From NCBI RefSeq assembly GCF_003018255.1, contig NZ_CP027440.1: 64,000 nt of DNA; one strand, 5' to 3'. The notes below the pieces were generated by a model. That model was not told where the DNA came from. It saw nothing but the letters and a program-made list of their open reading frames with translations, and searched no databases. The position numbers were made by a program, and so were the translations under genes. The stretch is from Escherichia coli (GTDB lineage: Bacteria; Pseudomonadota; Gammaproteobacteria; Enterobacterales; Enterobacteriaceae). Shown in pieces: positions 1-53,676 of this stretch; the first letter of the stretch is position 1; every line of letters starts with the position of its first letter.

Positions 1-118
1 GGCCTCAACAGCATTGAATATGTTCACCAGCGCCAGTAACGCGGGTTACGGGAAAGAAGACGATAGCGCAGTTATCAAGATTTTCTCTGGCATCACCCTA
101 CCGGGAGCGAAATCATGA
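1..118 (+). CDS. 3' end of an upstream dehydrogenase gene (ygbJ-like), partial; start lies outside the window
   Basis: Open frame from the window edge ending at TGA 116-118, overlapping the ATG of the next gene (ATGA), which suggests operon coupling. Identity is inferred from conserved gene order only. Confidence 0.5.
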   Translation, partial: ASTALNMFTSASNAGYGKEDDSAVIKIFSGITLPGAKS

Positions 119-1377
119 TCAAGATTGGCGTTATCGCCGATGATTTTACCGGCGCGACGGATATCGCCAGTTTTCTGGTGGAAAACGGTCTACCAACGGT
201 ACAAATTAACGGTGTTCCAACAGGTAAAATGCCGGAAGCAATCGACGCACTGGTGATCAGCCTGAAAACGCGCTCCTGTCCGGTGGTTGAAGCCACACAG
301 CAATCGCTGGCGGCTCTGAGCTGGTTGCAACAGCAAGGTTGCAAACAGATCTATTTCAAATACTGCTCTACTTTCGACAGTTCGGCGAAAGGTAATATCG
401 GCCCGGTTACCGATGCATTAATGGATGCTCTCGACACGCCGTTTACGGTCTTCTCTCCGGCCCTGCCGGTCAACGGACGTACGGTTTATCAGGGGTATTT
501 GTTCGTAATGAATCAACTGCTGGCCGAATCCGGGATGCGCCATCACCCGGTAAATCCCATGACCGACAGCTATCTTCCCCGTCTGGTTGAAGCGCAATCC
601 ACAGGGCGCTGCGGCGTCGTTTCGGCACATGTTTTCGAACAAGGTGTGGATGCCGTTCGTCAGGAGCTGGCTCGCTTACAGCAAGAGGGCTACCGCTACG
701 CGGTGCTTGATGCGCTGACCGAACACCATCTGGAAATTCAGGGAGAAGCCTTGCGCGATACCCCACTGGTAACGGGCGGTTCTGGTCTGGCGATTGGCCT
801 TGCCCGGCAGTGGGCGCAAGAAAACGGTAACCAGGCTCGCGAAGCAGGGCGTCCGCTCGCTGGGCGCGGCGTAGTGCTCTCCGGTTCATGCTCTCAAATG
901 ACCAACCGCCAGGTGGCACATTACCGTCAAATTGCACCAGCCCGTGAGGTTGATGTGGCACGCTGCCTCTCAACCGAAACTCTGGCCGCTTATGCACACG
1001 AGCTGGCAGAGTGGGTTCTGGGCCAGGAAAGTGTACTTGCTCCACTGGTTTTTGCCACCGCCAGCACTGACGCATTGGCAGCAATTCAACAGCAATACGG
1101 TGCACAAAAAGCCAGTCAGGCAGTGGAAACACTGTTTTCTCAACTAGCGGCGCGGTTAGCAGCGGAAGGCGTGACACGCTTTATTGTCGCAGGCGGTGAG
1201 ACCTCCGGCGTAGTCACACAGAGCCTGGGCATAAAAGGTTTTCATATTGGCCCAACCATTTCCCCCGGCGTGCCGTGGGTAAACGCACTGGATAAGCCTG
1301 TCTCACTCGCCCTTAAATCTGGCAACTTCGGTGATGAAGCCTTTTTTTCACGAGCCCAAAGAGAGTTTTTATCATGA
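115..1377 (+). CDS. ygbK: YgbK-type four-carbon acid-sugar kinase (3-oxo-tetronate kinase, OtnK; DUF1537 family)
   Basis: 420-aa ORF with N-terminus MIKIGVIADDFTGATD typical of this family; stop overlaps the next start. Confidence 0.85.
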   Translation: MIKIGVIADDFTGATDIASFLVENGLPTVQINGVPTGKMPEAIDALVISLKTRSCPVVEATQQSLAALSWLQQQGCKQIYFKYCSTFDSSAKGNIGPVTDALMDALDTPFTVFSPALPVNGRTVYQGYLFVMNQLLAESGMRHHPVNPMTDSYLPRLVEAQSTGRCGVVSAHVFEQGVDAVRQELARLQQEGYRYAVLDALTEHHLEIQGEALRDTPLVTGGSGLAIGLARQWAQENGNQAREAGRPLAGRGVVLSGSCSQMTNRQVAHYRQIAPAREVDVARCLSTETLAAYAHELAEWVLGQESVLAPLVFATASTDALAAIQQQYGAQKASQAVETLFSQLAARLAAEGVTRFIVAGGETSGVVTQSLGIKGFHIGPTISPGVPWVNALDKPVSLALKSGNFGDEAFFSRAQREFLS

Positions 1378-2012
1378 GCGATTTCGCAAAAGTAGAGCAG
1401 TCTTTGCGAGAGGAGATGACGCGGATTGCCAGTTCATTCTTTCAGCGCGGATATGCAACTGGTTCGGCTGGCAATCTGTCGCTGCTTTTACCTGACGGGA
1501 ATTTACTGGCGACACCGACAGGTTCATGCCTGGGCAATCTCGATCCGCAGCGGCTTTCCAAAGTCACCGCGGATGGCGAATGGTTAAGTGGTGACAAACC
1601 CTCGAAAGAGGTGCTCTTTCATCTGGCGCTGTATCGCAACAATCCGCGCTGTAAAGCGGTAGTGCATTTGCACAGTACGTGGTCGACGGCGCTTTCCTGC
1701 CTGGAAGGGCTGGACAGCAATAACGTTATTCGGCCGTTCACACCATACGTGGTGATGCGGATGGGAAACGTCCCGCTGGTGCCCTATTACCGACCGGGCG
1801 ATAAACGCATCGCACAGGATCTGGCGGAACTGGCAGCAGACAATCAGGCTTTTTTACTGGCAAATCATGGCCCAGTGGTTTGCGGTGAAAGCCTGCAAGA
1901 AGCCGCCAACAATATGGAAGAGCTAGAGGAAACGGCAAAGCTGATTTTTATTCTCGGTGACCGCCCGATCCGTTATCTGACCGCAGGTGAAATTGCGGAA
2001 TTAAGGAGTTAA
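1374..2012 (+). CDS. ygbL: class II aldolase/adducin-family decarboxylase (3-oxo-tetronate 4-phosphate decarboxylase, OtnC)
   Basis: 212-aa ORF; ATGA overlap with ygbK; position in the ygb operon. Confidence 0.85.
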
Positions 2013-2016
2013 TGCA

Positions 2017-2793
2017 ATGCCTCGTTTTGCAGCTAATTTATCCATGATGTTCACCGAAGTGCCTTTTATTGAACGCTTCGCCGCAGCGCGAAAAGCCGGG
2101 TTCGATGCTGTGGAGTTTCTGTTTCCCTATGACTACTCCCCCCAGCAAATCCAGCAGCAACTGGCGCAAAACCACCTGACGCTGGCGCTGTTCAATACCG
2201 CTCCCGGAGATATTAATGCGGGAGAATGGGGATTATCCGCCCTTCCCGGACGTGAGCACGAAGCACGTGCAGACATCGACCTGGCACTGGAATATGCATT
2301 GGCGCTCAATTGTGAACAAGTCCATGTGATGGCAGGCGTCGTGCCCGCTGGCGAAGATGCTGAACGGTACCGGGCAGTATTTATTGATAATCTCCGCTAC
2401 GCTGCCGACCACTTTGCGCCACACGGCAAGCGAATATTGGTTGAAGCACTCAGCCCCGGCGTTAAGCCTCATTATCTCTTCTCCAGCCAGTATCAGGCAC
2501 TGGCTATTGTTGAAGAGGTTGCGCGAGATAACGTTTTTATTCAACTAGATACTTTCCATGCGCAAAAAGTAGATGGCAACCTGACGCATTTAATCCGCGA
2601 CTACGCCGGGAAATATGCGCACGTACAAATTGCCGGACTACCTGATCGACATGAACCGGACGATGGAGAAATCAACTATCCGTGGCTGTTCCGCCTGTTC
2701 GATGAAGTGGGATATCAGGGCTGGATCGGTTGTGAATACAAACCTCGTGGCCTCACCGAAGAAGGACTTGGCTGGTTTGACGCCTGGCGCTAA
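2017..2793 (+). CDS. ygbM: hydroxypyruvate isomerase-like TIM-barrel protein (2-oxo-tetronate isomerase, OtnI)
   Basis: 258-aa ORF starting 4 nt after the ygbL stop; xylose-isomerase-like fold signature. Confidence 0.85.
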
Positions 2794-2881
2794 TTCGTTA
2801 AATCCCCAATTACAACGTACCCATACATCCCCCCATCTACGGATGGGGTAGGTTAACTATAACTTTCAGACAGGGTTTCCC

Positions 2882-4246
2882 ATGTCCACAATTACATTGT
2901 TATGCATTGCGTTAACTGGCGTAATCATGCTGTTGCTGCTGGTCATCAAGGCAAAGGTACAACCATTCGTTGCTCTGCTCCTCGTCAGCCTGTTAGTCGC
3001 ACTTGCGGCGGGTATACCGGCGGGCGAAGTGGGTAAAGTGATGATCGCCGGGATGGGCGGTGTGCTTGGTTCCGTCACTATTATTATTGGTCTGGGCGCT
3101 ATGCTGGGGCGTATGATCGAACACTCTGGTGGTGCAGAGTCACTGGCTAATTATTTCAGTCGCAAGTTAGGCGACAAACGAACTATCGCTGCGCTGACTC
3201 TGGCAGCGTTCTTCCTCGGTATTCCCGTCTTCTTTGATGTCGGCTTTATTATTCTTGCGCCAATCATTTACGGTTTTGCCAAGGTTGCCAAAATATCACC
3301 ACTCAAATTTGGTCTGCCTGTCGCTGGGATCATGCTCACTGTTCACGTGGCGGTACCGCCTCATCCAGGCCCTGTCGCCGCAGCGGGGTTACTCCACGCA
3401 GACATCGGCTGGCTAACCATCATCGGTATTGCGATTTCTATTCCCGTAGGGATTGTTGGCTACTTTGCAGCGAAAATAATCAATAAGCGCCAATATGCGA
3501 TGTCGGTCGAGGTACTGGAACAGATGCAACTGGCTCCGGCCAGTGAGGAAGGCGCGACAAAATTAAGCGATAAAATAAATCCACCGGGCGTCGCGCTGGT
3601 CACCTCGCTAATTGTTATTCCTATCGCGATTATCATGGCGGGTACGGTTTCCGCAACACTGATGCCGCCTTCGCATCCCCTGCTTGGTACGCTACAGCTG
3701 ATCGGCTCACCAATGGTAGCTCTAATGATTGCGCTGGTGCTGGCATTCTGGTTATTGGCTTTACGTCGCGGCTGGAGCTTACAACACACCAGCGACATTA
3801 TGGGCTCAGCCCTTCCCACTGCGGCGGTAGTGATTTTGGTTACTGGTGCTGGAGGGGTATTTGGCAAAGTGCTGGTGGAATCGGGCGTCGGTAAAGCCCT
3901 TGCCAACATGTTACAAATGATTGACCTGCCTCTGTTACCAGCCGCATTTATTATTTCACTGGCGCTGCGTGCATCGCAGGGGTCAGCAACCGTAGCAATC
4001 CTGACAACCGGCGGGTTACTCTCAGAAGCGGTGATGGGATTGAATCCAATTCAGTGCGTATTGGTGACGCTGGCAGCCTGCTTTGGTGGGCTTGGCGCGT
4101 CACATATTAATGACTCAGGGTTCTGGATTGTGACCAAATATCTGGGGTTGTCGGTAGCAGACGGGCTGAAAACCTGGACAGTGTTAACGACCATTCTCGG
4201 TTTTACCGGATTCTTAATTACCTGGTGCATATGGGCGGTAATTTGA
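2882..4246 (+). CDS. ygbN: GntP-family acid-sugar:H+ permease
   Basis: 454-aa highly hydrophobic ORF of GntP transporter length and pattern. Confidence 0.85.
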   Translation: MSTITLLCIALTGVIMLLLLVIKAKVQPFVALLLVSLLVALAAGIPAGEVGKVMIAGMGGVLGSVTIIIGLGAMLGRMIEHSGGAESLANYFSRKLGDKRTIAALTLAAFFLGIPVFFDVGFIILAPIIYGFAKVAKISPLKFGLPVAGIMLTVHVAVPPHPGPVAAAGLLHADIGWLTIIGIAISIPVGIVGYFAAKIINKRQYAMSVEVLEQMQLAPASEEGATKLSDKINPPGVALVTSLIVIPIAIIMAGTVSATLMPPSHPLLGTLQLIGSPMVALMIALVLAFWLLALRRGWSLQHTSDIMGSALPTAAVVILVTGAGGVFGKVLVESGVGKALANMLQMIDLPLLPAAFIISLALRASQGSATVAILTTGGLLSEAVMGLNPIQCVLVTLAACFGGLGASHINDSGFWIVTKYLGLSVADGLKTWTVLTTILGFTGFLITWCIWAVI

Positions 4247-4253
4247 CCTTAAT

Positions 4254-4281
4254 AAAAGGTCCGATGGGCATCGGACCTTTT
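4254..4281. terminator. bidirectional intrinsic terminator between ygbN (+) and the decarboxylase operon (-)
   Basis: Perfect inverted repeat AAAAGGTCCGATG/CATCGGACCTTTT, A-run before and T-run after, directly flanked by two convergent stop codons. Confidence 0.7.
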
Positions 4282-4283
4282 AT

Positions 4284-4520
4284 TTAGCGCTTACCTTCCG
4301 CCAGCAGCGGCGGGATGCTCGGCACCATCGGCGCGTCATCAATATCTTTCTGCGTCATGCGGAACGCTTCGGGATAATGTTCGCGGCTGGTGCGGCGTAG
4401 CGGTTCGGTATCGCGCCAGGTATAGAGGCAATGCTGGCACTGGTAGACCATCCAGACATCTTTTACCGGCGATTTCGCCATCACTTCAATCTGTTCATCG
4501 GCACAACGTGGACAAATCAT
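4284..4520 (-). CDS. ecdD: small zinc-ribbon subunit of a UbiD-type hydroxyarylic acid decarboxylase (EcdD/KpdD/BsdD-like)
   Basis: 78-aa ORF with CPRC...CQHC; immediately downstream of and co-oriented with the UbiD-like gene. Confidence 0.75.
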   Translation of the reverse strand: MICPRCADEQIEVMAKSPVKDVWMVYQCQHCLYTWRDTEPLRRTSREHYPEAFRMTQKDIDDAPMVPSIPPLLAEGKR

Positions 4521-4530
4521 CTTGTTCTCC

Positions 4531-5958
4531 TTATTGACGTGCGGCCAGCATAGCGGTCAGTTTTTCAGCCCAGGCTTTGGTTTCCGGTAAGTCCACCACC
4601 GGCTGGCTGTAGTGACCACGGTTGTCCGGGGCGACAGGCGTGGTGGCGTCGATAATCAGCTTGTCGGTGATCCCCGCCGGACTTGAGCCAGGGTCGAGTT
4701 CCAGCACGGACATATTCGGCAACTGTACCAAATCCCCTGCCGGGTTCACTTTCGAGGAGAGCGCCCACATCACCTGCGGCAGGTTGAACGGATCAACGTC
4801 TTCATCGACCATAATCACCATCTTCACGTAGCCCAGACCGTGCGGCGTGGTCATCGCACGCAGGCCCACCGCGCGGGCAAAGCCGCCGTAGCGTTTTTTG
4901 GTGGAGATAATCGCCAGCAGGCCGTGGGTGTACATGGCGTTTACCGCCTGCACTTCCGGGAACTCGGCTTTCAGTTGTTGATACAGCGGCACGCAGGTGG
5001 CAGGCCCCATCAGGTAGTCGATTTCGGTCCACGGCATACCAAGATAGAGCGATTCGAAAATCGGTTTGGTACGGTAAGAGACTTTATCGATACGCACCAC
5101 GGTCATGTTACGCCCGCCGGAGTAGTGGCCGGTAAACTCACCGAACGGCCCTTCAATCTCACGTTTACGACTTTCGATAACCCCTTCGAGGATCACTTCC
5201 GAGCCCCACGGCACATCAAAACCGGTCAGCGGGGCGGTGGCGATCGGGTACGGGCTTTCGCGCAGCGCGCCTGCCATTTCGTACTCAGACTGATCGTATT
5301 TCAGCGGCGTGGCCCCCATTAGGGTGATGATCGGATCGTTACCGAGTGTGATGGCAATCGGCAGATCTTCACCGCGCTCTTCTGCTTTATGCAGATGCAG
5401 GGCGATATCGTGCATCGGCACCGGTTGCAGGCCGAGCTTACGCTTGCCCTTCACTTCCATGCGGTAGATGCCGACGTTCTGCTTGCCGAAGTTATCCGGG
5501 TCGAGCGGATCGCGGGAAACCACGCACGCTTTATCGAGATAGAAACCGCCATCACCGTCGTTTAAACGAAACAGCGGCAGAATATTGAACAGGTTGATCT
5601 CGTCGCCATCGACGGTGTTCTGCGCCCAGGCTGGATTGGCGCGGCGCTCCGGGGCAATGGGGAAGTTATCCCAGCGGCGGATAAACTCATCAATCTGTTT
5701 TTTAACCGGGGTGTTTGGCGGCAGGCCGAGGGAAATCGCGTGGTTCTGCCAGGAACCGATGGTGTTCATTGCCACGCGGGCATCGATAAAGCCGCGAATA
5801 TTATCAAACCAAAGCGCGGGCGCGCCGTCGCCGATACGCCCGGTGGCGTTGGCTGCGGCTGCCAGATCCGGTTCCGCGTTCACCTCTTCGCTGATTTTCA
5901 GTAACTGGCCGTGGTCATCAAGCGCCTGTAAAAAGCTGCGTAAATCATCAAATGCCAT
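4531..5958 (-). CDS. ecdC: UbiD-family non-oxidative aromatic acid decarboxylase (EcdC/KpdC-like)
   Basis: 475-aa ORF with UbiD-like N-terminus MAFDDLRSFLQALDDHGQLLKI; start overlaps the upstream stop. Confidence 0.85.
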   Translation of the reverse strand: MAFDDLRSFLQALDDHGQLLKISEEVNAEPDLAAAANATGRIGDGAPALWFDNIRGFIDARVAMNTIGSWQNHAISLGLPPNTPVKKQIDEFIRRWDNFPIAPERRANPAWAQNTVDGDEINLFNILPLFRLNDGDGGFYLDKACVVSRDPLDPDNFGKQNVGIYRMEVKGKRKLGLQPVPMHDIALHLHKAEERGEDLPIAITLGNDPIITLMGATPLKYDQSEYEMAGALRESPYPIATAPLTGFDVPWGSEVILEGVIESRKREIEGPFGEFTGHYSGGRNMTVVRIDKVSYRTKPIFESLYLGMPWTEIDYLMGPATCVPLYQQLKAEFPEVQAVNAMYTHGLLAIISTKKRYGGFARAVGLRAMTTPHGLGYVKMVIMVDEDVDPFNLPQVMWALSSKVNPAGDLVQLPNMSVLELDPGSSPAGITDKLIIDATTPVAPDNRGHYSQPVVDLPETKAWAEKLTAMLAARQ

Positions 5959-6551
5959 TATTCATTCTCCTGAGAAAAATTCCGGGCCTGCGGCAATCCT
6001 TGCCAGCGCCTGGCGTGAGGATGTTCGAGGCCAAATTGATCCAGCACGCGGGCTACCACGTGGTGGACAATGTCATCTACCGTTTCGGGATGGTTATAAA
6101 AGGCAGGCATCGGCGGCACCATCGCCACGCCCATGCGCGAAAGTGCGAGCATATTTTCGAGATGGATTGTGCTAAGCGGCATTTCACGCGGCACCAGCAC
6201 CAGTTTGCGGCCTTCTTTGAGCACGACGTCCGCCGCGCGCCCCACCAGGCCATCGGCGTAACCAGCGCGGATACCGGCGAGCGTTTTCATACTGCATGGA
6301 ATAACGATCATGCCGTCGGTACGAAAGGAGCCGGAAGAGATAGTCGCCGCCTGATCCGCCGGGTTATGGCTGAAGTCTGCGAGGGCGGCAACATCGCGAG
6401 CGCTGTAAGGCGTTTCCAGTTCAATCGTGATTTTCGCCCACTTCGACATCACTAGATGAGTCTCGACATTCGGCATCTCCCGCAGCGCTTGCAGTAATGC
6501 CACACCAAGAGGCGCACCGGTAGCCCCTGTCATCCCGACGATCAGTTTCAT
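5958..6551 (-). CDS. ecdB: UbiX/Pad1-family flavin prenyltransferase (EcdB/KpdB-like)
   Basis: 197-aa ORF with MKLIVGMTGATGA flavoprotein motif; first gene of the three-gene minus-strand operon. Confidence 0.85.
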   Translation of the reverse strand: MKLIVGMTGATGAPLGVALLQALREMPNVETHLVMSKWAKITIELETPYSARDVAALADFSHNPADQAATISSGSFRTDGMIVIPCSMKTLAGIRAGYADGLVGRAADVVLKEGRKLVLVPREMPLSTIHLENMLALSRMGVAMVPPMPAFYNHPETVDDIVHHVVARVLDQFGLEHPHARRWQGLPQARNFSQENE

Positions 6552-6568
6552 TGCTTACTCTCTTAATT

Positions 6569-6582
6569 GTTCGTATACGAAC
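6569..6582. promoter_or_regulatory. 14-bp perfect palindrome GTTCGTATACGAAC in the divergent promoter region (candidate MarR-type operator)
   Basis: Perfect dyad about 18 nt upstream of the ecdB start codon, between the divergent MarR gene and the decarboxylase operon. Confidence 0.35.
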
Positions 6583-6697
6583 GTTATTATTAACATACTC
6601 CTTCATTTCCACAGCGGCAAGGATTGAAAAGTAACAACATCTTCTTCGTCACTGAAAAACCGCTATGATAGCGACAGAGAATTAGCCCGGAGTTTAC

Positions 6698-7105
6698 ATG
6701 GCGTTACGAAATAAAGCGTTCCATCAGTTACGACAGCTTTTTCAGCAGCATACAGCTCGCTGGCAGCACGAGTTACCTGACCTGACCAAACCACAGTACG
6801 CGGTGATGCGCGCCATTGCTGATAAGCCTGGTATCGAACAGGTGGCACTGATAGAAGCAGCAGTCAGCACCAAAGCAACGCTGGCAGAAATGTTGGCAAG
6901 AATGGAAAATCGTGGCTTAGTCAGACGTGAACATGACGCCGCTGACAAGCGGCGACGCTTTGTCTGGCTGACTGCCGAAGGAGAAAAGGTACTTGCTGCG
7001 GCGATCCCCATTGGTGACAGTGTGGATGAGGAATTTTTGGGGCGTTTGAGTGCAGAAGAGCAGGAGCTGTTTATGCAGTTGGTGCGCAAGATGATGAGCA
7101 AATAG
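6698..7105 (+). CDS. MarR/SlyA-family transcriptional regulator
   Basis: 135-aa ORF with winged-helix MarR pattern, divergent from the decarboxylase operon. Confidence 0.8.
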   Translation: MALRNKAFHQLRQLFQQHTARWQHELPDLTKPQYAVMRAIADKPGIEQVALIEAAVSTKATLAEMLARMENRGLVRREHDAADKRRRFVWLTAEGEKVLAAAIPIGDSVDEEFLGRLSAEEQELFMQLVRKMMSK

Positions 7106-7182
7106 GATGCTGATTGCCGGGTAGGACGCTGACGAGTCTTATCCAGGCGACAAAACACACCGACTTCCCAAACAAAAGAAAA

Positions 7183-7208
7183 AGGCCAGCCTCGCTTGAG
7201 ACTGGCCT
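7183..7208 (-). terminator. rpoS intrinsic terminator
   Basis: 11-bp stem (AGGCCAGCCTC/GAGACTGGCCT, one mismatch) followed on the minus strand by a U-rich tract, about 20 nt downstream of the rpoS stop. Confidence 0.65.
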
Positions 7209-7225
7209 TTCTGACAGATGCTTAC

Positions 7226-8218
7226 TTATTCGCGGAACAGCGCTTCGATATTCAGCCCCTGCGTTTGCAGGATTTCGCGCAAACGGCGCAGGCCTTCAAC
7301 CTGAATCTGGCGAACACGTTCACGGGTGAGGCCAATTTCACGACCTACATCTTCCAGTGTTGCCGCTTCGTACCCCAGCAAACCGAATCGACGTGCCAGT
7401 ACTTCACGCTGTTTGGCGTTCAGCTCGAACAGCCATTTGACGATGCTCTGCTTCATATCGTCATCTTGCGTGGTATCTTCCGGACCGTTCTCTTTTTCAT
7501 CGGCCAGGATGTCCAGCAACGCTTTTTCGGAATCACCACCCAGCGGGGTGTCTACCGAGGTAATGCGCTCGTTAAGACGAAGCATACGGCTGACGTCATC
7601 AACTGGCTTATCCAGTTGCTCTGCGATCTCTTCCGCACTTGGTTCGTGGTCCAGTTTATGGGACAACTCGCGTGCGGTTCGCAGGTAAACGTTCAGCTCC
7701 TTTACGATGTGAATAGGCAAACGAATAGTACGGGTTTGGTTCATAATCGCCCGTTCGATCGTCTGGCGAATCCACCAGGTTGCGTATGTTGAGAAGCGGA
7801 AACCACGTTCCGGGTCAAACTTCTCTACCGCGCGGATCAGCCCCAGGTTGCCCTCTTCGATCAGGTCCAGCAACGCCAGACCACGATTGCCATAACGGCG
7901 GGCAATTTTTACCACCAGACGCAAGTTACTCTCGATCATCCGGCGGCGGGAGGCAACATCTCCACGCAGTGCGCGACGCGCAAAATAAACTTCTTCTTCG
8001 GCCGTTAACAGTGGTGAATAACCAATCTCACCAAGGTAAAGCTGAGTCGCGTCCAGCACACGCTGTGTGGCTCCCTGCGATAACAGTTCCTCTTCGGCCA
8101 AATCGTTATCACTGGGTTCCTCTTCTACTAAGGCCTTTTCGTCAAAAACCTCAACTCCGTTCTCATCAAATTCCGCATCTTCATTTAAATCATGAACTTT
8201 CAGCGTATTCTGACTCAT
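7226..8218 (-). CDS. rpoS: RNA polymerase sigma factor sigma-S (sigma-38)
   Basis: ORF extends to 8254 but the start is placed at [17 protein letters not shown], giving 330 aa; sigma-70 family regions present; codon 33 is Glu, so no amber or truncating allele. Confidence 0.95.
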
Positions 8219-18304: not shown

Positions 18305-19188
18305 GGGAGTTCTACCGCAGGGGCGGGGAATTCTAAGTGATATCCATCATCGCATCCAGTGCGCCCGGTTTATCCCCGCTGACGCGGGGAACACACATGA
18401 ATGTCGGTTCAGACCGTGTTTTTACCCGGTTTATCCCCGCTGGCGCGGGGAACACGAGGCTGAACAGGGAGGGGGCTACCGGCACAGCGGTTTATCCCCG
18501 CTGGCGCGGGGAACACTTGCCAACCGCCAAAGACTGGAAAACCAATCTCGGTTTATCCCCGCTGGCGCGGGGAACACTTAAACTTGCCGCCGGTATGGGG
18601 GGAACGGGCCGGTTTATCCCCGCTGGCGCGGGGAACTCGTTTCGCGTCGATCGCCTTTTGCGCAATCGCGCCGGTTTATCCCCGCTGGCGCGGGGAACTC
18701 TTTCTTTTTCCATTTAAGTTATTCTAATACCCCGGTTTATCCCCGCTGGCGCGGGGAACTCGATCATGCCTTACTAAAAGGTCCGCTGACGGGCGGTTTA
18801 TCCCCGCTGGCGCGGGGAACTCATCATGACAAAAAGTTACGCTCATCTATTCAACGGTTTATCCCCGCTGGCGCGGGGAACTCTCCATATGTTGCCCCGC
18901 TCGGGACAACACCCCCGGTTTATCCCCGCTGGCGCGGGGAACTCTTAGCGCCGACAAAAGAAGTTGCGGATAACAGCGGTTTATCCCCGCTGGCGCGGGG
19001 AACTCGCCCGTTCCCAGGGAGTGCGGCTCCACCCCCGCGGTTTATCCCCGCTGACGCGGGGAACTCTTCAGTTTCACACTCGGTAATGCCGTTATTTACG
19101 GTTTATCCCCGCTGGCGCGGGGAACTCCTCGGGGCCAGCCTCCCCCATTAACCCGGCACCGGTTTATCCCCGCTGGCGCGGGGAACTC
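18305..19188 (-). CRISPR. type I-E CRISPR array: 14 intact or near-intact 29-nt repeats plus one degenerate terminal repeat (18305-18333), 14 spacers
   Basis: Plus-strand repeat CGGTTTATCCCCGCTGGCGCGGGGAACTC at a 61-nt period (reverse complement of the canonical E. coli repeat GAGTTCCCCGCGCCAGCGGGGATAAACCG). Spacers are 32 nt, one is 33 nt. The four leader-distal repeats end in CAC rather than CTC. Confidence 0.98.
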
Positions 19189-44132: not shown

Positions 44133-44271
44133 ACATACCTGAATGGTTATCCCCGCTGACGCGGGGAACATAAGTTCGACAACTTAAAAAATGATAACAA
44201 GTCCGGTTTATCCCCGCTGATGCAGGGAACATAATAAAAACTTTAACTAGTTCGGTTTATCCCTGTTTTTA
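44133..44271 (-). CRISPR. degenerate CRISPR remnant: three decayed repeats with AT-rich spacer-length intervals
   Basis: GGTTATCCCCGCTGACGCGGGGAACA, CGGTTTATCCCCGCTGATGCAGGGAACAT and CGGTTTATCCCTGTTTTTACAAGGAATAT at about 60-nt spacing, just downstream of ygcE. Confidence 0.8.
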
Positions 44272-44735: not shown

Positions 44736-45069
44736 TGGTTTATCCCCGCAGGCGCGGGGAACTCATAGAGAAAAGAAACGGCAGCTTTGCCACTTCCGGT
44801 TTATCCCCGCTGGCGCGGGGAACTCCGCGTTTCTAATCTCACCGCCACGGCGATCAACGGTTTATCCCCGCTGGCGCGGGGAACTCACCCCTTTAACGTC
44901 ACCAGACCGCTAACGACGCGGTTTATCCCCGCTGGCGCGGGGAACTCGCGTAACCATTTTGATGGCGCTACCGAAATGGCGGTTTATCCCCGCTGGCGCG
45001 GGGAACTCGATCAACGGCCTGGCGGCTGCCTCTGAAATCTCGGTTTATCCCCGCTGGCGCGGGGAACTC
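44736..45069 (-). CRISPR. orphan type I-E CRISPR array: 6 repeats, 5 spacers of 32 nt
   Basis: Same repeat as the cas-adjacent array at a 61-nt period; the leader-distal repeat is a variant (TGGTTTATCCCCGCAGGCGCGGGGAACTC). Confidence 0.97.
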
Positions 45070-51346: not shown

Positions 51347-51404
51347 TAGAATGTCCTGAAAATTGCGGGTCCGTCAGGTGTAATACCTTCGAGTAAAAGA
51401 TATC

Positions 51405-51432
51405 GCTGGATACGGCTGACGCCATATCCAGC
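51405..51432 (-). terminator. relA intrinsic terminator (candidate)
   Basis: Stem GCTGGATA/TATCCAGC with a 12-nt loop, followed on the minus strand by a U-rich stretch, about 10 nt after the relA stop. Confidence 0.45.
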
Positions 51433-51441
51433 TATGTAAGA

Positions 51442-53676
51442 CTAACTCCCGTGCAACCGACGCGCGTCGATAACATCCGGCACCTGGTTGAGTTTACCCA
51501 GCACGCGCCCCAGCACTTGCAGGTTGTAAATCTCAATGGTCATGTCGATGGTCGCCAGTTGCTGTTTGGTGTCGCTACGGCTGGCAACGCCAAGTACGTT
51601 CACCTTCTCGTTGGCGAGAATGGTCGTGATATCACGTAACAACCCACTACGATCATTAGCCACCACGCGGACCACCAGCGAATATCCGGCGGAGTAGCTC
51701 TCGCCCCATACCGCGTCAACAATGCGTTCTGGCGCATGGGAGCGCAGTTCCGCCAATTGTTCGCAATCGGCGCGGTGTACTGAAATACCGCGCCCCTGGG
51801 TAATGAAGCCGACAATCTCATCTCCAGGAATCGGCTGGCAGCAGCGCGCGATGTGGTGCATCAGGTTACCGACCCCTTCTACCACCACACGACCGTTATC
51901 TTTACTGCGGTTTTGCGGCGTGTAGCTTTTTTGCTGAAGCTGTTTCAGCGCGGCGGCGTCCTGCTCTTCGGCACTCGGCTTATTAAATTGCGATTGCAGG
52001 AAGTTCACCATCTGATTGAGACGGATATCCCCGCCACCAATCGCCGCCAGCAACTCGTCGACATCATTGAAGTTGTAACGCGGCAGCAGATGTTTTTCTG
52101 CTTCTTTCAGGCTGATCCCCAGATGTTCCAGCTCGTCGTCAAGAATTTGCCGCCCAGCCAGAATGTTTTTGTCACGGTCCTGTTTACGGAACCAGGCGTG
52201 AATTTTCGAACGCCCACGGCTGGTTGTGACGTAACCGAGGTTTGGGTTTAACCAGTCACGGCTGGGGTTCGGCTGTTTCTGGGTGATAATTTCAATCTGG
52301 TCGCCCATCTGCAGCTGGTAGGTGAACGGCACAATGCGCCCGCCAATTTTTGCCCCGATGCAGCGGTGTCCGACATCACTGTGGATGTGGTAAGCGAAGT
52401 CCAGCGGCGTTGATCCCGCAGGCAAATCAACGACATCACCTTTCGGCGTAAAGACGTACACTCGGTCGTCAAAGACCTGACTACGTACTTCGTCGAGCAT
52501 TTCGCCGGAATCAGCCATCTCTTCCTGCCACGCAATCAGTTTACGCAGCCAGGCAATCCGGTCTTCATGTCCCGAACGTGCGCCGCCAGCAGCCGCGCCC
52601 TCTTTATATTTCCAGTGCGCAGCAACACCCAACTCTGCATCTTCATGCATCTGTTTGGTGCGGATTTGGATCTCAACGGTTTTGCCACCCGGCCCCAGAA
52701 CCACGGTATGAATGGACTGATAACCGTTTGGTTTCGGGTTAGCGACGTAATCGTCAAACTCATCCGGCAGGTGGCGATAGTGAGTGTGCACTATCCCCAG
52801 TGCGGCATAACAATCCTGTAAACGCTCGGCGACAATACGTACCGCACGCACATCAAACAGCTCATCGAAGGCGAGGTTCTTTTTCTGCATTTTGCGCCAG
52901 ATACTGTAGATGTGTTTCGGACGGCCATACACTTCAGCTTTAACGCCTTCAGCTTTCATCTCAGCGCGCAGATGGCCGACAAACTCTTCGATATAGTGTT
53001 CGCGGTCGAGACGGCGTTCATGCAGCAGTTTTGCGATGCGTTTGTATTCGGTCGGGTGGAGATAACGGAAGCAGTAATCTTCCAGCTCCCATTTCAGTTG
53101 CCCAATCCCAAGACGGTTCGCCAACGGCGCGTAGATATTGGTGCACTCTTTTGCCGCCAGTACGCGTTCATCTTCCGGCGCATCTTTTACTTCGCGCAGG
53201 TGAGCAATACGCTCCGCCAGTTTGATGACCACGCAGCGAAAATCATCGACCATCGCCAATAACATCCGGCGAACGTTATCGACCTGTTCGGAGGAAACAG
53301 AATCAGTGTGCGTCGCTTTCAGCTGGCGGATCGCCGCCATATCACGCACGCCGTGAATAAGGTTAACGACCGACTTACCGACGCTCTCACGCAGCACATC
53401 TTCGCTGACTACGTTGGCATCAGCCAGAGGGAACAGCAGCGCCGCCCGCAGCGTGTCAATGTCCATACTTAATGTCGAGAGGATCTCCACCATCTCAACA
53501 CCACGCCACAATAACAGACTGGCATCCGGATGCCCCTGCGTCTGTTGCAGACAATACGCCCAGGTTTCGGCTAAGCACTCACACGACTTCTGGCTGGTAA
53601 TACCCAGACTTGCGATCCATTTTTCCGGATCAAATTCACCAGCCTTATTGATATGTGCACTTCTTACCGCAACCAT
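51442..53676 (-). CDS. relA: GTP pyrophosphokinase, (p)ppGpp synthetase I
   Basis: 744-aa ORF with N-terminus MVAVRSAHINKAGEFDPEKWIASLGI. Confidence 0.98.
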   Translation of the reverse strand: MVAVRSAHINKAGEFDPEKWIASLGITSQKSCECLAETWAYCLQQTQGHPDASLLLWRGVEMVEILSTLSMDIDTLRAALLFPLADANVVSEDVLRESVGKSVVNLIHGVRDMAAIRQLKATHTDSVSSEQVDNVRRMLLAMVDDFRCVVIKLAERIAHLREVKDAPEDERVLAAKECTNIYAPLANRLGIGQLKWELEDYCFRYLHPTEYKRIAKLLHERRLDREHYIEEFVGHLRAEMKAEGVKAEVYGRPKHIYSIWRKMQKKNLAFDELFDVRAVRIVAERLQDCYAALGIVHTHYRHLPDEFDDYVANPKPNGYQSIHTVVLGPGGKTVEIQIRTKQMHEDAELGVAAHWKYKEGAAAGGARSGHEDRIAWLRKLIAWQEEMADSGEMLDEVRSQVFDDRVYVFTPKGDVVDLPAGSTPLDFAYHIHSDVGHRCIGAKIGGRIVPFTYQLQMGDQIEIITQKQPNPSRDWLNPNLGYVTTSRGRSKIHAWFRKQDRDKNILAGRQILDDELEHLGISLKEAEKHLLPRYNFNDVDELLAAIGGGDIRLNQMVNFLQSQFNKPSAEEQDAAALKQLQQKSYTPQNRSKDNGRVVVEGVGNLMHHIARCCQPIPGDEIVGFITQGRGISVHRADCEQLAELRSHAPERIVDAVWGESYSAGYSLVVRVVANDRSGLLRDITTILANEKVNVLGVASRSDTKQQLATIDMTIEIYNLQVLGRVLGKLNQVPDVIDARRLHGS

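Follow-up and report, generated by a model that had tools for sequence, protein, structure and literature searches.

An Escherichia coli ygbJKLMN locus with an intact kinase reading frame: a probable four-step L-threonate operon, and the single-nucleotide frameshift that sets K-12 apart

Gene content and junctions of the locus

The stretch of DNA analysed here, referred to throughout as the window, comprises 64,000 nucleotides (nt) of Escherichia coli contig NZ_CP027440.1 (assembly GCF_003018255.1), and its first 4,246 nt carry the distal part of the ygbJKLMN gene cluster, including an intact copy of ygbK (otnK), a gene that is frameshifted in the K-12 reference. According to the raw sequence and the list of open reading frames, positions 1-4246 hold five consecutive plus-strand frames, running from the 3' end of ygbJ to ygbN (Table 1); upstream of these, outside the window, lie the start of ygbJ, its promoter and ygbI, which is divergent and encodes the repressor. 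The ygbJ/ygbK, ygbK/ygbL and ygbL/ygbM junctions measure -4, -4 and +4 nt, each with a Shine-Dalgarno-like motif inside the upstream gene, an arrangement that has the geometry of translational coupling; the ygbM/ygbN junction, with its spacer of 88 nt (2794-2881), does not. The original prediction, which had placed ATGA overlaps at both ends of ygbK and a 4-nt gap ahead of ygbM, agrees with the raw sequence and frame list on each of these points, and its description of tight junctions along ygbJKLMN stands for the first three but does not extend to ygbN; that the overlap at 1374-1377 is missing from the K-12 reference had gone unnoticed.

Positions 1-4300 are 100% identical to E. coli JNE23-011 by megablast, and the gene boundaries equal those of its RefSeq annotation, in which the genes are named ltnD, otnK, otnC, ygbM and ygbN. 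Of 5426 complete E. coli genomes, 4602 contain the cluster, and its G+C content, 50-56% throughout, is unremarkable. In K-12 MG1655 the same genes occur in the same order (b2736-b2740), each 97.3-99.2% identical at the nucleotide level to its counterpart here, and the ygbJ/ygbK overlap, the ygbL/ygbM gap and the 88-nt spacer ahead of ygbN are all as in the window. Where K-12 differs is in ygbK and in the distance from ygbK to ygbL, which are treated below.

Table 1. Coordinates of the genes, junctions and sequence elements in the first part of the window.
Feature	Position	Strand	Remarks
ygbJ/ltnD, 3' end (L-threonate 2-dehydrogenase)	2-118	+	last 38 codons and TGA at 116-118
GGGAG, Shine-Dalgarno-like motif for ygbK	103-107	+	7 nt before ATG, within ygbJ coding sequence
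ATGA stop/start overlap, ygbJ/ygbK	115-118	+	ygbK ATG 115-117, ygbJ TGA 116-118
ygbK/otnK (predicted 3-oxo-tetronate kinase)	115-1377	+	420 aa; DUF1537 family, SBD_N + NBD_C
CCCCC run in ygbK	1262-1266	+	CCCC in K-12 (MG1655, locus L002, 3880-3883)
LKSGNFG, OtnK codons 400-406	1312-1332	+	invariant C-terminal motif
GAGAG, weak Shine-Dalgarno-like motif for ygbL	1361-1365	+	8 nt before ATG, within ygbK coding sequence
ATGA stop/start overlap, ygbK (otnK)/ygbL (otnC)	1374-1377	+	ygbL ATG 1374-1376, ygbK TGA 1375-1377
ygbL/otnC (Aldolase_II-type decarboxylase)	1374-2012	+	212 aa; TAA stop 2010-2012
AAGGAG, Shine-Dalgarno motif for ygbM	2003-2008	+	8 nt before ATG, within ygbL end
ygbL-ygbM gap (TGCA)	2013-2016	+	4 nt; from sequence
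ygbM/otnI (2-oxo-tetronate isomerase)	2017-2793	+	258 aa; xylose-isomerase-like TIM barrel
7-bp GC hairpin CCCCAUC-UACG-GAUGGGG, ygbM-ygbN spacer	2831-2848	+	from folding
ygbN (GntP-family permease)	2882-4246	+	454 aa; Pfam/NCBIfam
15-bp perfect hairpin with A/T-run flanks	4251-4284	both	from folding
Non-oxidative hydroxyarylic acid decarboxylase subunit D	4284-4520	-	convergent to ygbN
Hydroxyarylic acid decarboxylase subunit C	4531-5958	-	
Hydroxyarylic acid decarboxylase subunit B	5958-6551	-	
MarR/SlyA-like regulator	6698-7105	+	between ygbN and rpoS

Identity of the gene products

Profile searches assign each product to a family. YgbK matches, from end to end, both of the Pfam profiles into which the former DUF1537 has been divided, SBD_N (PF07005) over residues 4-228 (2.1e-75) and NBD_C (PF17042) over residues 253-411 (1.4e-42), and reaches 597 bits against the NCBIfam equivalog for 3-oxo-tetronate kinase (OxoTetrKin, NF043035; cut-off 350), whereas the sister models for D-threonate kinase DtnK (131 bits, cut-off 450) and 3-oxo-isoapionate kinase OiaK (112 bits, cut-off 700) are left far below their thresholds. 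In the Protein Data Bank (PDB) it finds 3dqq over residues 1-418 (E=7e-221), and also 1yzy and 5dmh. DtnK, OiaK and the DUF1537 proteins of PDB entries 4xfm and 4xfr possess the same two-domain fold and, like YgbK, a C-terminal K-x-G-x-F-G, although the 4xfm and 4xfr chains are distant relatives, matched by YgbK at E-values no better than 1e-16 to 1e-22. Two OtnK motifs, GGETS (residues 360-364) and LKSGNFG, are invariant in 26 of 26 aligned sequences and are both present in the window protein. Assignment of the ygbK product as the 3-oxo-tetronate kinase OtnK is thus supported at the level of profiles and motifs.

YgbL is matched by Pfam Aldolase_II (2.5e-50) and by the NCBIfam OxoTetrPhDc model (NF043034; 335 bits, cut-off 250), the models of FucA type (fuculose-phosphate aldolase) remaining under their own cut-offs, and by PDB 6vop (E=3e-138); its His98, His100 and His165 occupy the positions expected for the metal site of a class II aldolase (His-x-His ... 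His). YgbM belongs to the xylose-isomerase-like triosephosphate isomerase (TIM) barrels (Pfam AP_endonuc_2, PF01261, 7e-51) and passes the equivalog for 2-oxo-tetronate isomerase (OxoTetrIsom, NF043033; 399 bits, cut-off 325), in contrast to the hydroxypyruvate isomerase model TIGR03234 Hyi, which it approaches without reaching (303 bits, cut-off 353). PDB 1k77 ("ygbM") is YgbM itself (E=1e-173). For YgbK, YgbL and YgbM, then, there are experimental structures (3dqq, 1yzy, 5dmh, 6vop and 1k77) of identical or almost identical proteins. Despite its match to a TIM-barrel isomerase, YgbM is named "HPr family phosphocarrier protein" by RefSeq/PGAP and by NCBIfam NF007441, apparently a misannotation now propagated to thousands of genomes.

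YgbN is a GntP permease by Pfam (PF02447, 1.6e-154, residues 5-453) and NCBIfam (NF007332, PRK09821; 827 bits, cut-off 524), and is presumed from its gene context to import the acid sugar, L-threonate. Of YgbJ the window retains only the 38 C-terminal residues, which align with positions 260-296 of the NCBIfam ThreonDh model at 52 bits; the full-length protein of JNE23-011 passes the L-threonate dehydrogenase equivalog (473.6 bits, cut-off 350) and falls below the cut-offs of the tartronate semialdehyde reductase models. Among the cluster products scanned, full-length YgbJ included, none matched a D-erythronate dehydrogenase model. As far as profiles can tell, the dehydrogenase would therefore be of the LtnD (L-threonate) type, and for D-erythronate only the shared OtnI, OtnK and OtnC steps would serve. 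The product families named in the original prediction are borne out for every product by both Pfam and the NCBIfam equivalogs, apart from a "DUF1357" kinase domain, evidently a slip, the only kinase-domain matches being PF07005 and PF17042; its attribution of the cluster to both L-threonate and D-erythronate catabolism fits an L-threonate-type dehydrogenase followed by shared steps, and goes too far in that no D-erythronate dehydrogenase match was obtained from those products.

The K-12 allele of ygbK

Alignment of the window with MG1655 reveals a single indel within the operon, the deletion in K-12 of one C from the C-run of ygbK. The K-12 frame consequently shifts at codon 385, and the resulting YgbK is 388 residues long as opposed to 420, ending in ...SPACRG. 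This truncated protein aligns with the equivalog model, 418 positions long, over positions 1-384 only and is deprived of LKSGNFG as well as F410, F411 and A414, all of which are invariant in the 26 aligned OtnK sequences. Because of the same deletion, K-12 has no ATGA overlap between ygbK and ygbL; in its place stands a gap of 91 nt in the MG1655 annotation, or 92 nt as RegulonDB gives it.

The distribution of the two alleles was determined with 33-nt probes, in which each 28-mer spans the C-run. The five-C (C5) allele occurs in 3801 genomes and the four-C (C4) allele in 370; of 40 carriers sampled evenly from the latter, nearly all were named K-12 derivatives or shared K-12 coordinates. Carriers of C4 include MG1655, W3110, BW25113, DH10B, JM109, J53, HB101 and MC4100, and also EC06, which bears the label of a human gut isolate. 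RefSeq presents the truncated K-12 ygbK as an ordinary coding sequence with no pseudogene flag, and a search of the literature available for the analysis found no mention of the frameshift. Judged by the residues removed, kinase function is likely to be lost in K-12.

Conservation of the kinase/decarboxylase overlap

A scan with the OtnK protein, restricted to one genome per species, yielded 27 loci, which together with L001 and K-12 formed a comparison set of 29. The 27 loci range from Escherichia albertii, at 92% identity, down to loci at 42-48% in Alphaproteobacteria, Betaproteobacteria, Planctomycetaceae, Oscillospiraceae and Acidobacteria. The full order, with ygbI divergent from JKLMN, is kept in E. 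albertii, Serratia, Pluralibacter, Entomohabitans, Pantoea, Enterovibrio, Succinivibrionaceae and Anaerobiospirillum, and JKLMN is likewise retained in a Desulfovibrio locus, whose cut contig shows no match to ygbI. The gene directly downstream of otnK is otnC in the window and in 21 of the 29 loci compared, and 19 of these 22 adjacencies, from different species at 42-92% protein identity, share the ATGA overlap, the other three junctions measuring -1, -8 and +72 nt. Homology to E. coli N-termini guided the choice of start codons, so that exact junction lengths may be slightly biased; the presence of ATGA at the kinase stop is read from the sequences themselves. On this comparison of sequences, the otnK/otnC overlap exceeds what chance would give.

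The junction between ygbJ and ygbK ranges from -4 to +34 nt: E. albertii, Serratia, Pluralibacter, Pantoea, Entomohabitans and Aureimonas have -4 or -1 nt, and other loci small gaps; ygbL/ygbM ranges from -1 to +18 nt. In 10 other species' loci ygbN follows otnI, and the spacer ahead of it measures 64 to 120 nt across species. At the position of the weak E. coli GAGAG ahead of otnC, other species carry GGAG. The start region of ygbL is predicted to be unstructured (-3.5 kcal/mol, z +0.8), which fits termination and reinitiation better than the unmasking of a structured site. The overlaps and their conservation are suggestive of translational coupling.

Transcription and hairpins

In K-12, YgbI has been reported to bind a single site, at the ygbJ promoter, and deletion of ygbI derepresses all five genes from ygbJ to ygbN together (PMC8464067). 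A transcript spanning ygbK and ygbL is seen by RNA-seq even in K-12 (PMC4168707). A consensus scan for promoters returned nothing in the ygbJ/ygbK or ygbL/ygbM junctions or in the ygbM-ygbN spacer, and the promoter-like sites in the region number 3 against 4.0 expected from shuffled sequence. The terminator consensus scan likewise gave a count at or below the shuffled expectation, and it missed the hairpin at 4251-4284, probably because its stem runs into the T run. On the two strands this hairpin folds at -21.0 and -22.2 kcal/mol (z -5.3 and -6.5), a value that none of 200 shuffles equalled, and it is likely to represent a bidirectional intrinsic terminator common to ygbN and the convergent gene for decarboxylase subunit D. 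An Rfam scan of positions 1-8000 (E<=1) returned nothing in the operon.

A GC-rich hairpin is found soon after the otnI stop in all 11 species' otnI-ygbN spacers (64-120 nt; those other than E. coli are L003-L008, L013, L016, L020 and L021), in some of them followed by a T run, and it may act as a partial terminator or as a stem-loop that stabilises the mRNA and thereby sets the ratio of enzymes to permease. Since the spacer sequences are not alignable, and the whole spacer folds significantly better than shuffled sequence (p<=0.023) in no more than 6 of the 11 species, E. coli (z -0.6) not being one of them, the ygbM-ygbN spacer is not claimed as a structured RNA element.

Discussion

The biology of this cluster is already known, as the original prediction rightly remarked, the pathway having been assigned in 2016. 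As set out in two papers that cite Zhang et al. 2016 (PMC12540250, PMC12994016), the four-step route proceeds from L-threonate to 2-oxo-tetronate by LtnD, to 3-oxo-tetronate by OtnI, to 3-oxo-tetronate 4-phosphate by OtnK and finally to dihydroxyacetone phosphate (DHAP) by OtnC. This chemistry is taken from the literature and derives from orthologues; the gene identities, junctions, conservation and K-12 frameshift are results of the present analysis. All four families occur here and pass their equivalog cut-offs, and the locus further includes a GntP permease and a DeoR repressor, leaving no difference from the published pathway at the level of families. A three-step route described in 2024 also begins with LtnD, employs a DUF1537 kinase and ends at DHAP, but in the same two papers it is given without OtnI and with a decarboxylase carrying an F_bP_aldolase domain. 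The presence of OtnI and of an Aldolase_II decarboxylase thus identifies the present cluster as the four-step type. Positions 1-4246 very probably represent the distal part of a ygbJKLMN (ltnD-otnK-otnC-otnI-ygbN) operon that encodes the four-step pathway from L-threonate to DHAP.

A model of how the operon may work can be proposed on this footing. L-threonate, presumably imported by YgbN, would be oxidised by LtnD, and OtnI (YgbM) would isomerise the 2-oxo- to the 3-oxo-tetronate; OtnK (YgbK) is predicted to phosphorylate the latter at C4 at the expense of ATP, and OtnC (YgbL) would decarboxylate the phosphorylated product to yield DHAP. The five genes are most likely carried on one transcript, from the YgbI-repressed promoter upstream of ygbJ to the hairpin at 4251-4284. 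At the ygbJ/ygbK and ygbK/ygbL overlaps and the 4-nt gap between ygbL and ygbM, terminating ribosomes would most likely reinitiate, which would link the output of kinase and decarboxylase, and ygbN, behind its 88-nt spacer with a hairpin, would be translated independently. It is possible that the ATGA lock between kinase and decarboxylase, conserved in wild E. coli as well as in several phyla, keeps labile 3-oxo-tetronate 4-phosphate from accumulating.

Several points weigh against this model. The growth phenotypes of E. coli found in the literature concern tartrate only and not threonate (PMC8464067, PMC6452873), and the MG1655 record still labels the E. coli enzymes "putative". RegulonDB, as quoted in PMC4168707, lists three units, ygbJK, ygbLM and ygbN. 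A promoter-like match, TTCACG-17-TATCAT (1347-1375; 9 of 12 positions), lies just ahead of ygbL, and the unstructured start of ygbL might also permit independent initiation.

The first alternative holds that the true substrate in E. coli is L- or meso-tartrate, which YgbN would import and YgbJ oxidise, the resulting keto-acid then being converted by YgbL and YgbM in the direction of hydroxypyruvate, tartronate semialdehyde and glycerate. A K-12 ygbI deletion grows on L-tartrate where the wild type does not, from which the authors propose that YgbI represses a tartrate pathway (PMC8464067), and both independent lines evolved on m-tartrate gained ygbI mutations together with overexpression of ygbJKLMN (PMC6452873). 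YgbJ does resemble tartronate semialdehyde reductases and YgbM hydroxypyruvate isomerase, yet both scores fall below the cut-offs, and the glyoxylate/tartronate models as a group do so whereas all four enzymes pass the tetronate equivalogs. The proposed route, moreover, leaves no role for the DUF1537 kinase, and the activities are described as "likely promiscuous" by the authors of PMC6452873 themselves. Both studies were performed in K-12, where the kinase is truncated, and hence cannot report on the intact pathway. We regard tartrate as an unlikely, if still credible, native substrate.

A second alternative concerns transcription, and proposes that ygbJK, ygbLM and ygbN are separate units whose overlaps are incidental, with YgbI acting on the distal units only indirectly. 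Besides the RegulonDB list and the promoter-like match ahead of ygbL, it can call upon the 88-nt spacer before ygbN and upon the "indirect" inhibition of ygbLM and ygbN modelled in PMC8464067. That model, however, derives from the RegulonDB split, and the split falls at the K-12 gap of 91-92 nt, itself the product of the 1-nt deletion at a junction where the wild-type genes overlap by 4 nt. The transcript across ygbK and ygbL in K-12 and the joint derepression of five genes from one YgbI site likewise argue for continuity, and the count of promoter-like sites does not rise above chance. Three units are therefore improbable, and with the wild-type allele a single operon is the simplest reading. 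Least probable, by a small step further, is a cluster devoted mainly to D-erythronate or another acid sugar with L-threonate as a side substrate, for while OtnI, OtnK and OtnC are common to the L-threonate and D-erythronate routes (PMC12994016) and homologues of LtnD reportedly take several C4 acids as substrates (PMC12540250), the dehydrogenase scores above the L-threonate equivalog cut-off, neither YgbJ nor any other cluster product scanned matches a D-erythronate dehydrogenase model, no flanking gene in the annotated genome is related to a dehydrogenase of that kind, and the D-threonate and 3-oxo-isoapionate kinase scores fall well short of their thresholds.

We lean, with reservations, towards the view that otnK of K-12 is a lineage-specific frameshift pseudogene with consequences for the pathway, the phenotypes and the apparent operon split of that lineage. 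If this is true, the tetronate pathway could not run in K-12, the tartrate phenotypes of K-12 ygbI mutants would be independent of the kinase, and both the ygbJK/ygbLM division in the database and the model of indirect repression would be artefacts of a single-nucleotide deletion. The window carries the intact, ancestral arrangement and the K-12 reference does not, which counsels caution in work based on K-12 that concerns the use of L-threonate or tartrate, regulation by YgbI, or metabolic models; a strain with the intact allele, for instance the source of the window, offers an alternative.

Neighbouring region

Beyond ygbN, the window differs from K-12 in that a decarboxylase BCD operon and a MarR/SlyA-like gene intervene before rpoS, which in K-12 follows ygbN directly ("pattern II"); rpoS and nlpD come next after the MarR/SlyA-like gene. 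This segment, 4284-7105, is absent from K-12 and corresponds to "pattern IV" of the polymorphic o454-nlpD/mutS-rpoS region (PMC4209514). Within the MarR-rpoS intergenic sequence, at 7172-7212 on the minus strand, the Rfam family ctRNA_p42d is matched below threshold (28.7 bits, gathering threshold 50; E=0.0043), probably by a terminator-like hairpin and by chance. In NZ_CM128590.1 and NZ_CM143912.1 the match to positions 1-4300 is in two pieces, split by about 710 nt with a transposase of the IS200C family; an IS200 insertion between o454 and rpoS has been reported (PMC4209514).

Past the first 4.3 kb, JNE23-011 and the window are about 98.9% identical, and they differ in CRISPR spacer content. 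At 51388-51442 the toxin-antitoxin pair mazE-mazF, which in K-12 takes up about 690 nt between relA and mazG, is absent; the K-12-homologous segments are only some 53 nt apart here, and in the closest annotated genome mazG likewise adjoins relA. That genome also possesses a complete cas3-casABCDE-cas1-cas2 set between iap and cysH, and there it shares about 98.9% identity with the window. The window contains type I-E arrays of clustered regularly interspaced short palindromic repeats (CRISPR) at 18367-19186 (14 repeats) and 44737-45067 (6 repeats) of GGTTTATCCCCGCTGGCGCGGGGAAC, and a degenerate two-repeat remnant at 44144-44230. Spacer content differs from that of the closest annotated genome, and the alignment of the two breaks only at those arrays.

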